NCBI GenBank assembly: GCA_963810935.1
Contig: CAWEPK010000005.1
Span: 1-64,000, forward strand
Direction: 5' to 3'
Length of the DNA stretch: 64,000 nt
From: an uncultured delta proteobacterium
Lineage (GTDB): Bacteria; Desulfobacterota; Syntrophorhabdia; Syntrophorhabdales; WCHB1-27
Below are positions 51,357 through 57,751 of the stretch, piece after piece; position 1 is the stretch's first letter; every line of letters starts with the position of its first letter. The notes under the pieces are model-generated. The model saw only the letters and a list, made by a program, of their open reading frames with translations, was not told the origin of the DNA and searched no databases. A program made the position numbers and the translations under genes.

Positions 51357-52560
51357 CTACAATTCTATTAGGTCGATGGGTGTGCCGGTAACACGCTCCA
51401 GCTTCTCTTTACGGGCGATGAAATCGACTTCTATGCCTATTGCGCCTTTGCCCGGAAAGACGAATTTGGGCTCGAAGGCAAACACGTGGCCTTCAACGAG
51501 CATCCTTTTGTGGCGCCCCGTTACAACCGGCAGCTCGTTGATCTCAAGACCGAGCCCGTGGCCGATGAAGGATACCCGCTCGGGGCCGAAGCCCATAAAA
51601 TGCTGCTCCAGGCCGGCTTTTTTCGCAGCCGCGTAAGCCCTTTCGTATATGGCGGTGCAGTCTACGCCCTCTTTTCCGAAGGACCCCGCATCCTCCACGA
51701 TCTCCCGCGCGACCTCGAACGGTTTCCGGAACGTCTCGTCCAATGGCCCGACTACAAAAGACCTCGTCTCGTCCGTGATATAGCCGTTGTAGCCGCCGCC
51801 GTAATCGACCAGGACGGGGATGCCTTTTTGCACTGCGTGCATCGATGACCCCTGGGCAATTGCAGGTGTGACACCGAGGCCCGCAATAGGCACATCGCCC
51901 GCAGAAGCTACCGTCCCCGAGTATCCGGCCGTGACGTACAGGTTCATCATCTCCTGGTTGAGGCCCCTCATCCGCAGCATTCCCTGGTGGCCGTGCCGCC
52001 GGCCGGCCGCTACCAGCGCAGCGTCGATGTCGACCTCTCTCACGCCCTCTCTTATGACCTTCGGCGCTTCGGCGAAGATTGCATCACAGATGGCCCCCGA
52101 CCGGCGCACCTGCTCGATCTCGAACGGGCTTTTTACGATCCGGAGTCTCTTTTATAAGGTCTGATACGTCCACAAAATCGTTGAAGCCCATAAGGCCGCA
52201 AAGCCTCTGAAAAACCGCTACAGGGACGACGTCGAACTCCATGCCGCCCTTCCCCTTGAGGATCCCTTTTGCCCGGAGCGCATTCGCCATATCCCTGTCG
52301 CTCTTCGCTTCCATGACTGCAAGGGGCGTCTCCACCCGCGCGCGTCCTACGCTCCTTGCGACGAAGTAGAGCGGCTCGTCGTCGAGCGGGACGACGAGGG
52401 TGGCCCTCTGGGTCGAGCCGGTGAAATAGAATAGATCGACGTGCTGCACTATCACGCAGAAATCGATCCCCGACTTCGCCATCAGCGCCTTCAGGCCTGC
52501 TATCCTTGCGGCGATTTCTTCCTTAGGCGTGTGCTCACCCGCGGCGTGCTCTCTCAACAT
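51357..52560 (-). CDS. Xaa-Pro peptidase family M24 (apparent +1 frameshift near 52146)
   Basis: Creatinase-N domain, then [28 protein letters not shown] and EPK. The start may be further upstream, overlapping the proS end. Confidence 0.88.
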
Positions 52561-54247
52561 GCTCCATCACCTTTCCGAAGACGTCTTCTTTCCGCACCCT
52601 GACGGGCGCTTCCTCGGCGCGCAGCTTGATATCGACGTTTCCTTCCTTGAGGCCCCTTTCGCCTACCGTGACGCGCAGGGGTATGCCGATAAGGTCGCAG
52701 TCCTTGAACTTGACGCCCGGCCTTTCGTCCCTGTCGTCCAAGAGAGTATCGACCCCGGCCGCCGAAAGGGCGCCGTAAAGGTCCGTGGCTATTTCCATGC
52801 TCTCGGCGTGGGACGTGTTTACAGGCAGGACCTCCACCTCGAAAGGCGCGATGGCGAAAGGCAGCGCGATGCCGTTGGCGTCATGGTTCTGCTCGATGGC
52901 CGCCGCAACCGTCCTACCCACCCCTATGCCGTAACAGCCCATGACGAACGGCCGTTCCTGTCCTTCGGAATCAAGGAAGGTCGCATTCATCGCCTCGCTG
53001 TATTTCGTCCCCAGCTTGAAGATATGGCCGACCTCGATGCCCCGTGTTGCGGTGAGGCGGCCGCCGCAGCGCGGGCACGCATCGCCGGCGCGCGCCACCT
53101 TGAGGTCGTAATAGCCTTCGACTTTGAAATCTGCGGGGTTGACTCCCGTTATATGGACATCCTTTTCGTTTCCGCCTACGACGAAATCCTCCATCGAAAG
53201 GATGTCGTTGTCTGCAAAAAGAGGGATGGAAAGGCCGATGGGGCCTGAAAAACCCAGGGGTCCGCCGGTGGCCTCTTCTATGATCGACTCGCCCGTAAGC
53301 TCAACGAATTTGAAGCCGGCGACGTTCTTGAGCTTGATCGGGTTTATCTCCCTGTCGCCCGCCACAAGGGCGCCCACAACCCCCCTGTCCGTCATAAAGA
53401 GAAGCGTCTTTACGAGCTTATCCGGGGGCACATCCAGGAATGCGGCCACTTCCTCAACCCGTTTCTTACCCGGCGTCTCCACGCGCTTATACGACCCGCC
53501 CGCCTTTTTCGCTGAAACCGGGGCAGCGGCCCCGACCTCGGCCCGCTCCAGGTTCGCCCCATAGTCGCAGGAATCGCAAGAGATGATAGTATCCTCGCCC
53601 GTGTCGGCAAGGACCATGAACTCATGCGAGAACTTGCCGCCTATCTCTCCCGTGTCTGCCTCTACTGCGCGGAACCGGAGGCTGCACCGCCTGAAAATGT
53701 TCTCGTAAGCGTGGTACATCTCCATGTAGCTCTTTTCCGCCCCCCGCTCGTCCGCGTCAAAGCTGTAAGCGTCCTTCATGATGAACTCTCTGGAGCGCAT
53801 CACGCCGAACCTGGGCCTTATCTCGTCGCGGAACTTCGTCTGTATCTGGTAAAGGTTGCGGGGCAGCTCGCGATATGAGCGCAGTTCCTTCCGAACGAGG
53901 TCGGTAATAACTTCTTCGTGCGTCGGGGCGAGGCAAAGCTCCCTGTCGTTCCGGTCTCTGAACCGCAAGAGCTCTTTGCCGTAGAAGTCCCACCTGCCGC
54001 TCTCCACCCACAGCTCTTTCGGCTGCACGGCAGGCATCAGTATCTCCTGTGCCCCGGCACGGTCCATTTCTTCTCTTATGATCCGCTCCACCTTCCGCAA
54101 CGACTTGAGGCCCAGCGGCAGCCACGTGTAGATGCCGGCGGAAAGCCGCCTTATAAAACCTGAGCGGAGCATAAGCTTGTGGCTTACTACTTCAGCCTCC
54201 TTCGGCTCCTCCTTCATCGTCGGCAAGAACATGCGAGAGAACAACAT
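52535..54247 (-). CDS. proS: Proline--tRNA ligase
   Basis: [27 protein letters not shown] and MGCYGIG motifs; INS editing domain present. Confidence 0.98.
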
Positions 54248-54297
54248 CGGCTTACCCCCAGTCTTTAAAAGTCCGTCCTGCGTCTGTTTTTCAGAAG

Positions 54298-54715
54298 CTA
54301 TTTTGCTACGGCGTAACCCCTGGCCGTCCAGGCAGGGTAGCCGCCCGAAAGCAGCCCGACCTTCAGATAGCCTAAATTCAGGGCCGCGACCGCGGCCTGT
54401 TTGCTAGAATCTCAGGCCAACCCCCTGCAATAGAAGACAACTTCTGTCTCCTTGTCGGCAGGGAGCAGCGTAGAAAGCTTTTCGAACTCGTACGGCGGTA
54501 TATTGACCGCCCCCGGCAGGTGGCCCTCCTGCCTGTATTCATATTCGGTCCTCGTATCGACCACAAAAGGCCCGCGGCCCGCTTCGATCCTCTCCTTGAG
54601 CCTGCTCAGGGGTCAGGTTCTCGATGCGCCCCTGCTGTCCGACCGTTGCGCAGGAAAAGGCAAGCAACGCGGCCAGTAAACAGAGGGCGGCAGACGCATG
54701 GCGACCCGGTTTCAT
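54298..54715 (-). CDS. Rhodanese-domain lipoprotein with in-frame UGA (predicted selenocysteine); apparent +1 frameshift near 54601
   Basis: Lipobox AFSC, VVDTR..EY...[29 protein letters not shown] and LSGGYPAW; not present in the ORF track. Confidence 0.8.
54375..54411 (-). promoter_or_regulatory. Bacterial SECIS-like hairpin
   Basis: GGCCGC-GGTC-GCGGCC stem-loop (54382-54397); the G-starting apical loop is 20 nt after the UGA. Confidence 0.7.
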
Positions 54716-54851
54716 GTGTTAAATCTAACAAATAACGGGCTTATTGTCACTATTTCCCGGCCGTAAGGCGGCCGCTGCCGCTTCAGGCCAGCCGGTAAGG
54801 ACCCCAAACACATGTTGTCGAAGGATTTGCGCCGTGGTAGGATAGGAGCTT

Positions 54852-55316
54852 ATGAATCCTATCGACGACAAGCCGGCAATGGACGAAACGGTCATATACC
54901 GGACAAAATGCCATGGGGCCATGATGCTCGGGCCGATAGTGGTTGTTATCATAGGGTGTCTGGCCTTGCGCTCGCAAGGGTTCAACGCAGGGGTGCTCAT
55001 TGCTTTCGGCCTGATCTGGGGCGCCCTCGCATACAATATCCTGCGCCGGTCGCACCTGGAGCTGACCCGCTCCGGCGTTTCGATCACAGCCGGTTTTCCG
55101 GTACCGGTGCATTACGATATCCCCACGGCCAGGATAGAAGCGATCGATTTTTACCAGCCGGCTCTCGGCTCGATGCTCGATTTCGGCAAGGTCCTCATCG
55201 TCGATAAACAGCGGGGGAAAAGTATTATCAAATTCGTCTCGGGCCCAGCGGAATTCGTGATGAGGGTCCGCGAGCAACTGATCGCACTCGCAGCGCCGCC
55301 CACGGACAACCCGTAG
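54852..55316 (+). CDS. Membrane protein with a bacterial PH-like domain
   Basis: Two TM helices then ELTRSGVSITAG...IEAIDFYQPALGSMLDFGKV. Confidence 0.7.
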   Translation: MNPIDDKPAMDETVIYRTKCHGAMMLGPIVVVIIGCLALRSQGFNAGVLIAFGLIWGALAYNILRRSHLELTRSGVSITAGFPVPVHYDIPTARIEAIDFYQPALGSMLDFGKVLIVDKQRGKSIIKFVSGPAEFVMRVREQLIALAAPPTDNP

Positions 55317-56658: not shown

Positions 56659-57751
56659 TTAGCTTTCGGGGTACTGCTCGAAGAGCCGCCCCCATTTAGT
56701 ACCGCCCACGTGCGCTTTCTGGATGCTCTTGCCTTTGGTCGGCCACCAGCAATAGTCGTGGTACAGGAATGAGCCCAATATCAGGCAGTATACGAGCGGG
56801 GTGTGCGTAAAGAGGTTCTGAATAGGCTTGAACGGCCCGAACCAGAGCGAATCCCCCACTTTGCTCGCCAGGTTATCGCCGACGGAGAAACGGAAGTCGA
56901 TCTTCGAGATATCCTCACCCACGACCTCTATCTCACCCGGCTTGCCCACACCCAGCCCGTCCTCGTGGGCCATGCGGATGTACGGTATGCTCATAGGATC
57001 GAACCCCATCATTTTTGCAGCCACCGCGTCGATCGCTACACAGTCCGCCCCGGCCAGGACATAGTCTTTTTCGACGGGTATCATTGTCCTCGGCCCCGGA
57101 CCGTTCCCGCAGATCGTCCCGTCCATCACGGCGAATATACCCGTATGTATCTCCTTCTGGATGGCAAGAAGGTCGACAAGCGTCTCATGTATCCAGCTAT
57201 GCGTATAATGGCGCTTCGTGTTGAGGAGACCGCCGAAGGCATTCTTCATCGCCCCAGTAGTGGTCGTATAGATGTGGGTCTTCACTGTCGGCAGGTGCAC
57301 GATATTCTTCCCGATAAAATAATCGGGTATCCGTATCCCCTCGGGATAAATACGGTCGAGGGACCTCATCTTCGCCTTGGGCTTATAGACGGTCCAGGTG
57401 ATATCCTCAGGGAGAAAATTATACAGCTCCCGTATGCCGTACTTCTTGTAGACCGGCGTTAGCCTGTTCAGGACCCCGCCTTTTACCGGGTTGGTAACCA
57501 CGGTGTTATTGTGCACGGCGACAATGTTCCCTAACCCCGCGGCCTTGAGCGCAAGGATCACCCCCTCGAGCCTGCCAGGGCGTCGTGTTGGCGCTGAGGT
57601 AGGGGAAGTGCCAGGAGATATTGTCCTTGAGGATCGTCTCTCCGTCTTTCGGGAGGAAATCTTTCATCCCGGCCGACTGCATCACCTTCTCGATATCGTC
57701 GAGCACGCCCGCCGGCTTTGTCTTGATTACAGCTACTATAGGCTTTGCCAT
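56659..57751 (-). CDS. DUF362-family protein (apparent +1 frameshift near 57571)
   Basis: LKDNISW...TTPWQ[L]EGVI, LPTVKTH..TTGAMKNAFG, GNGPGP and DCVAIDAV motifs. Confidence 0.85.

Follow-up and report, generated by a model that had tools for sequence, protein, structure and literature searches.

The minus strand of the window, by which we mean the whole 64,000-nt stretch of DNA that was analysed, carries at its positions 54298 to 54715 what is, judged from the sequence and from that of its relatives, a real but mis-annotated selenoprotein gene, masked here by an in-frame UGA and by what is very likely an assembly error. The intact gene product is likely to be a 138-aa lipid-anchored exported rhodanese in which a cysteine and a predicted selenocysteine are separated by four residues (Cys96-x4-Sec101). 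The features of the locus are as follows.

54722 to 54750, minus strand: predicted sigma-70 promoter, with -35 GTGACA, a 17-nt spacer and an extended -10 TG-TAGATT (pattern search)
54650 to 54715, minus strand: lipoprotein signal peptide, residues 1-21 with the start codon, and lipobox Cys22 (54652-54650) (frame translation)
54601, no strand assigned: frameshifting extra base, very likely an artefact of sequencing or assembly, lacking in genome G002 and in contigs of read runs X1, X2 and X3
54301 to 54603, minus strand: single rhodanese domain (PF00581, E 2.9e-19; AlphaFold model of the G002 orthologue)
54427 to 54429, minus strand: codon of Cys96, at the catalytic position of canonical rhodaneses (no variation among 20 aligned orthologues; alignment with the loop Cys of rhodaneses of known structure)
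54412 to 54414, minus strand: in-frame UGA, inferred Sec101, which takes the sixth place in the active-site loop C-R-G-L-A-U (orthologue alignment)
54382 to 54397, minus strand: SECIS-like hairpin with a 6-bp stem and GGUC loop (54391-54388), within Ala-Ala-Val-Ala-Ala codons
54298 to 54300, minus strand: true stop codon TAG, the common end of the orthologue frames
52535 to 54247, minus strand: next gene, proS (prolyl-tRNA synthetase), starting 51 nt past the rhodanese stop

Reading frame and the extra base

The rhodanese frame runs from 54603 to the TAG at 54300-54298, and its sole interruption is the TGA at 54414-54412, in the context FYCRGLA-U-DSSKQAA. A sequence-only reading of this DNA had described rhodanese homology on both sides of this codon, and the Pfam Rhodanese model does span it, covering residues 2-94 of the read-through domain with 69.8 bits against a cut-off of 22.2. 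That reading was also right that the gene is absent from the list of open reading frames, as no listed ORF of at least 60 aa lies in its frame. What it overlooked is the extra base at 54601. The ATG at 54715 starts a lipoprotein-type signal ending in Cys22 (MKPGRH...LLAFS-C22), the frame of which ends after 58 codons, and the extra base separates this signal frame from the rhodanese frame; the 418 nt that had been taken as one gene stretch are thus divided between two frames, and a single ORF from 54298 to 54715 is ruled out.

Genome G002, of the same genus and 96% identical at the DNA level, has one continuous 138-codon frame and is without the base at 54601. Four public short-read runs from one study, which may include the source sample of the present assembly (G000), were compared over 51900-55300, the fourth being without coverage of 54601; the base is missing from the contigs of all three covering runs, the X3 contig extending merely 19 letters to one side of the position. 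The X1 contig covers 53136-54667 with six substitutions and leaves the TGA unchanged. Because the base is missing from G002 and from every covering run, it is taken to be, very likely, an assembly error, and a real pseudogene or a programmed frameshift at this point was rejected on the same comparisons. Across the window many single-base indels separate this assembly from G002. Genomes G001 and G012 also have single-base shifts in the rhodanese gene, at other positions.

Two further genes in the window are, or seem to be, broken in a similar manner. An M24 peptidase that follows proS (51357-52560, minus strand), and which is a single 400-aa gene in relatives, is interrupted by an extra base at 52146 that is missing from the short-read contigs in both of the runs that cover it. 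A DUF362 gene (56659-57751, minus strand) seems to be split into ORFs of 81 and 300 aa where G001 has one ORF of 363 aa, which is likely to be another indel.

Evidence for selenocysteine at the UGA

Forty-one related genomes were searched, and 25 of them, G000 included, have an orthologue with an E-value of at most 6.3e-20; in the other genomes the best matches, at 2e-11 or weaker, fall outside the orthologue set. At this site 24 of the 25 orthologues carry TGA and one, that of G019, carries TGC, the TGA orthologues come from three families of the order, and the frames run on for 37-41 codons past the UGA (53 in one case) to a common end. Among 120 listed database homologues the residue at this site is Cys in 98 and Trp in one, one has a deviant loop, and 20 end exactly there, which is to say that databases cut the gene at the UGA. 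The source names given with the homologues suggest Syntrophorhabdales. The relatives with CxGxxC that the earlier reading had invoked are therefore the rule among the homologues listed, and the non-Cys residues that were to count against it are nearly absent. Its central proposal, that of a selenoprotein, is well supported by the persistence of TGA among the orthologues and by the selenocysteine machinery encoded in the genome. The gene is found in 15 of the 22 genomes of the family; it was not found in the other seven, some of which are 95-98% complete, and it is thus dispensable. The Cys orthologue of G019 (L013, on G019:C28) belongs to a genome that has selA, and it keeps the hairpin stem with U, not G, at the first loop base.

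The GC-rich hairpin with a GGUC loop noted previously was recovered as a 6-bp G+C stem whose 4-nt loop begins 20 nt past the UGA, with -11.7 kcal/mol for the hairpin alone. The available part of a recent review gives a bSECIS model with a loop of 3-9 nt, a stem of 4-16 bp, G in the first two loop positions, a spacing of 16-37 nt and a minimum free energy at or below -7.5 kcal/mol (PMC13188914), and by our own script, used in place of bSECISearch, the hairpin lies within every one of these published limits. Covariation was assessed on 22 in-register Sec orthologues; the Cys form, G001 with its frameshift and one locus lying a codon out of register were excluded. In this alignment 91.7% of the cells are paired, the wobble pair 21:30 occurs as C-G, G-C or U-A with eight double changes, and the covariation score of 0.289 compares with 0.152 for shuffled alignments (reached in 0 of 500 shuffles) and exceeds all slid controls, a shuffle test that overstates covariation since the sequences are related and not independent. 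The first loop base, a synonymous site, is G in 21 of the 22, compared with GCG at 45 of 189 other Ala codons in the same genes.

Cys-form control loci were taken from a contig scan with a pattern that requires Cys, which gave 14 loci, all Cys forms. The five core stem pairs are all retained at 24 of 38 Sec sites but at only 2 of 36 Cys sites, with one spurious pattern match in each set. A loose SECIS-like pattern is also present at 26 of the 36 Cys control sites, because Ala-Ala-x-Ala-Ala codons are partly self-complementary.

The genome has selA, three tRNA-Sec genes and two selD genes, while selB is present but spread over three frames (C5:224288-226169, L040) and intact in G002; the selB split is probably the same kind of indel error. 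The search for selA, selB, selC and selD that the earlier reading had recommended, with a lack of machinery as the outcome that would speak against it, thus found them all. SelA is encoded in 23 of the 25 orthologue genomes. In G007, which is 80% complete, tRNA-Sec was found and searches for selA and selB gave no match; in G025 (L027, 98% complete) the TGA gene, an intact hairpin and a full selB are present, and selA and tRNA-Sec were not found, reflecting either a gap in the assembly or Sec decoding that was lost recently. With hairpin, codon conservation and machinery considered together, SelB would almost certainly bind the hairpin and selenocysteine be inserted at the UGA.

The three tRNA-Sec genes (L002-L004) are near-identical, at C4:30323-30414, C6:4921-5012 and C11:126664-126755, each after the same small gene cassette; one lies at the edge of a contig, and ORFs that by eye resemble integrases come after two of them. 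It may be that selC is an integration site that was assembled several times from strain variants. The selD copies lie at C8:20204-21109 and C9:199342-200256, one without an in-frame TGA and one with it.

The predicted protein

The lipoprotein-signal test asked for a basic N-region, a hydrophobic core and a lipobox Cys, after the PROSITE pattern, and the N-terminus of G002, on which it was run and which is identical to that of G000, matches. Cys22 is invariant in all 20 aligned orthologues, 15 of which satisfy the pattern. The lipoprotein N-terminus proposed from the sequence alone therefore stands as regards the signal and Cys22, with the correction that in this assembly it is not in frame with the rhodanese domain; if the frameshift in the assembly is disregarded, the protein can soundly be predicted to be exported as a lipoprotein. 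Cys96, Gly98 and Cys/Sec101 are likewise invariant in the 20 orthologues, Ser104 is conserved in at least 90% of them, and Arg follows the catalytic-position Cys in at least 90% of orthologues. An AlphaFold model of the G002 protein (pLDDT 88.6) consists of a signal helix and a rhodanese fold in which Cys96 closes a strand and residue 101 opens the next helix, and all top matches in a structure search with this model are rhodanese-type domains.

The canonical rhodanese loop is given as CRSG/AxR, ending in Arg, in the accessible text of PMC10925157. The predicted Sec101 is the sixth loop residue, where canonical sulfurtransferases have this Arg, and the loop accordingly fails the test for a canonical thiosulfate sulfurtransferase of the PspE/GlpE type. 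The TGA is situated in a CxGxxU active-site loop, as had been noted, but the selenocysteine would not be the catalytic residue, as that place is held by Cys96.

Other rhodaneses with in-frame TGA codons occur in this genome and beyond it. Two exported rhodaneses of G000 have the codon in a CxU motif, FYCDU at C12:211358-211780 (minus strand) and LYCAU at C17:146864-147292 (plus strand), and resemble the catalogued form 3 (NF041203), and Cys-only relatives are found on C8 (CGFTKC), C16 (CNGPYC) and C10 (CDCG). In a 301-genome sample of the phylum, of which 30 loci and four extra regions were read, the C-x-G-x-x-U loop is present in other single-, two- and three-domain rhodaneses. An exported three-rhodanese family of about 460 aa (L090, L091, L083) has C-x-G-F-R-U and a C-terminal Cys-Cys; many database entries of 254 aa match about 55% of this protein, consistent with a split at the UGA. 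In a tree of 75 domains, which is unrooted and weakly resolved, with few columns and many open forks, Sec and Cys forms are intermixed.

Relation to known rhodanese selenoproteins

Five predicted forms of rhodanese selenoprotein appear in the portion of a 2026 review that was available, including form 1 (UxxS), form 3 (CxU) and form 5 (TsoB, UxxxxU) (PMC13188914); an earlier list of forms is found in PMC9312934 and those of Olavius in PMC1976440. The accessible parts of PMC1794560 and PMC5029168 contain nothing further on motif position, and the word 'rhodanese' does not occur in the available part of deep-Sep, nor in the main text and partial supplement of BSepDB.

One of these forms is TsoB, which is known here from its NCBIfam name and the table in the accessible part of the review. 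Locus L089 is a TsoB by NF045694 (989 bits against a cut-off of 805), with the loop FY-U-AGLT-U-VRS, that is, U-x4-U. Its rhodanese domain is homologous to ours (36% identity over 114 aa), its second Sec occupies the same sixth loop position as Sec101 and is followed by x-x-S, its hairpin lies at a similar distance, and the TsoB model is the best NCBIfam match of the rhodanese lipoprotein. TsoB differs in being fused to DsbD and thioredoxin domains, whereas the present protein is a stand-alone lipoprotein of 138 aa, and in having Sec as the first loop residue where ours has Cys; with 67 bits, 138 aa and C-x4-U, the lipoprotein is not a member of NF045694. Form 1, of which WP_010941598.1 is the example sequence, shares a PF00581 domain with U-x-x-S, here U-D-S-S, a likeness of motif and domain, and the rhodanese lipoprotein may well be the same catalogue entry. 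A homologue search with a three-domain Sec rhodanese, in which that example was sought, listed no named Geobacter sulfurreducens entry, and a literature search for the connection likewise yielded nothing.

The rhodanese_LYCAU family (NF041203, form 3) is also a small exported single-domain rhodanese selenoprotein, but its Sec lies two residues past the Cys instead of five, and membership is rejected by the score (47.5 bits against 115) and by the motif, C-x4-U and not CxU. E. coli PspE and GlpE likewise have one rhodanese domain with a Cys at the catalytic position, and PspE is exported; it differs in its single Cys (PMC2593051), in the lack of Sec and in a cleaved signal, and membership in these families fails at about 21-24 bits against cut-offs of 102-126. 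The score for MoeB is also below its cut-off. BH2092 of Bacillus halodurans (PDB 3nhv, 3o3w) matches in fold, and its C-x-G-x-x-C loop aligns with C-R-G-L-A-U, but it is a Cys form with about 25% identity, and its PDB title gives no function.

The rhodanese lipoprotein thus belongs to a predicted-only kind of bacterial selenoprotein, and the novelty implied by the sequence-only reading was too high, as TsoB is already on record with Sec at this position. Our knowledge of Sec decoding is left unchanged by this gene. Correcting the annotation does give a group of anaerobes a further conserved selenoprotein of the envelope, and the natural Sec (G002) and Cys (G019) versions of a 138-aa single-domain protein form a convenient pair for testing the role of the second residue. 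A precedent for an exported bacterial selenoenzyme in sulfur chemistry, and one that has been tested, is MccSep, as described in the available part of PMC13510729.

Possible function

The reading that we tentatively prefer, at a little short of an even bet, is that the Cys96-x4-Sec101 pair may form a self-resolving, sulfur-handling redox centre that is re-reduced by a CcdA/DsbD relay. In this scheme Cys96 would accept a sulfane sulfur as in PspE, the donor being polysulfide, thiosulfate or a persulfidated partner, and Sec101, standing in the place of the canonical Arg, would serve as a built-in second nucleophile that attacks the persulfide, frees sulfide and ends up bonded to the Cys in a selenenylsulfide. 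Re-reduction of the selenenylsulfide would then fall to a periplasmic thioredoxin-like protein supplied by the CcdA/DsbD membrane relay, and the overall task would be a housekeeping one, concerned with sulfane sulfur and redox state in an anaerobe's envelope. In favour of a self-resolving pair, the second Cys/Sec varies no more than the first across the 20 aligned orthologues, and PspE can hand sulfur to a dithiol with release of sulfide, as stated in the part of PMC2593051 consulted. The C/U-x4-U loop is tied to a disulfide-reducing relay because TsoB has a homologous loop fused to DsbD and thioredoxin domains, an analogy which suggests that loops of this type may be recycled by such a membrane relay; G000 has one DsbD_TM gene, of CcdA size.

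A less probable alternative, and the one put forward in the sequence-only reading, is that the protein is a plain exported carrier or transferase of sulfur (or selenium), in which the Cys96 persulfide would be passed to an outside acceptor and Sec101 would tune or protect the site. The rhodanese fold, the Cys at the catalytic position and the Arg conserved directly after it are all consistent with such a carrier, as is the fact that periplasmic single-domain rhodaneses such as PspE are, in the accessible text of PMC2593051, thiosulfate sulfurtransferases. The replacement of the final Arg of the canonical CRSG/AxR anion pocket, as that pocket is presented in the available part of PMC10925157, speaks against it, the retention of a costly Sec in all but one of the orthologues argues for a chemical role of that residue, and no acceptor system is co-located with the gene.

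It is unlikely, though less so than a dead gene, that the rhodanese fold is a mere scaffold and sulfane-sulfur chemistry plays no part, the Cys/Sec pair serving instead as a thiol-disulfide oxidoreductase of the envelope or as a binding site for soft metals or metalloids (As, Hg, Cu, Zn). DsbD normally carries a terminal redox domain, and TsoB has its homologous loop at the usual place of that domain; a fur/znuACB-like cluster follows the gene in several genomes of other families; and an Sb(V)-As(V) reductase is among the proteins with the rhodanese/Cdc25 fold (2j6p, a weak match at E 6e-4). Yet the metal-uptake neighbourhood is confined to a few f4 genomes and is absent at this locus, the C-R-G-L-A-U loop is one residue shorter than the C-x5-R loop of Cdc25/Acr2, and the best structural matches are rhodanese-type domains. 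That the gene is dead in this organism, because 54601 is a true frameshift or the TGA a real stop, is very improbable: the assembly as given is frameshifted here and in selB, and G001 and G012 have their own shifts in the gene, but the bases at 54601 (3/3) and 52146 (2/2) are missing from all covering runs, one-base differences from G002 are numerous while both genes are intact there, and a stop at the TGA would remove the last helix and strand of a fold whose 37 downstream codons are conserved.

Returning to the self-resolving pair, a broader and more doubtful proposal can be made, namely that stand-alone lipid-anchored C-x4-U rhodaneses might be a widespread and routinely truncated subfamily in which the exchange of the anion-binding Arg for Sec made a sulfur carrier into a self-resolving persulfide/polysulfide reductase, a free-standing counterpart of the TsoB head domain that would be fed by CcdA/DsbD and, in this family, be translated from a leaderless transcript upstream of proS. 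Rhodaneses with C-x4-C/U are common throughout the phylum, and a literature search on those with a resolving Cys found no biochemical study of them. If the proposal were true, the C-x4-U lipoprotein would offer the smallest tractable model of a class of rhodanese chemistry yet to be characterised.

Genomic context and promoter

The location directly upstream of proS, pointed out in the sequence-only reading, holds for this family, in which proS adjoins the rhodanese gene at 15 of 15 loci, and fails for other families of the order (0 of 10), where the gene is found directly behind thrC (threonine synthase) at all ten loci. Some of the latter have fur/znu-like genes and dnaK downstream, and distant relatives occur in varied contexts. 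The rhodanese gene is probably co-transcribed with proS; a functional link between the two is unsupported, given thrC in the other families and the varied contexts of distant relatives. The neighbours at the loci compared are proS, thrC or a varied set of genes, and none that is conserved is a redox or sulfur partner.

The promoter pattern was found at one site against 0.3 expected, and it ends 6 nt upstream of the ATG; a leaderless mRNA heading a rhodanese-proS-peptidase unit is therefore predicted from its position. These -35 and extended -10 elements recur at 6 of 17 orthologue loci by pattern and, by eye, also at L018 and L021, lying 5-7 nt ahead of the start codon, and all loci with this conserved arrangement belong to this family. 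Upstream of the rhodanese gene lies a DUF362-UbiA-GtrA run headed by the split DUF362 gene. The same upstream region is shared with a divergent ORF of 154 aa (54852-55316, plus strand), which has a weak match, below the cut-off, to a bacterial PH domain.
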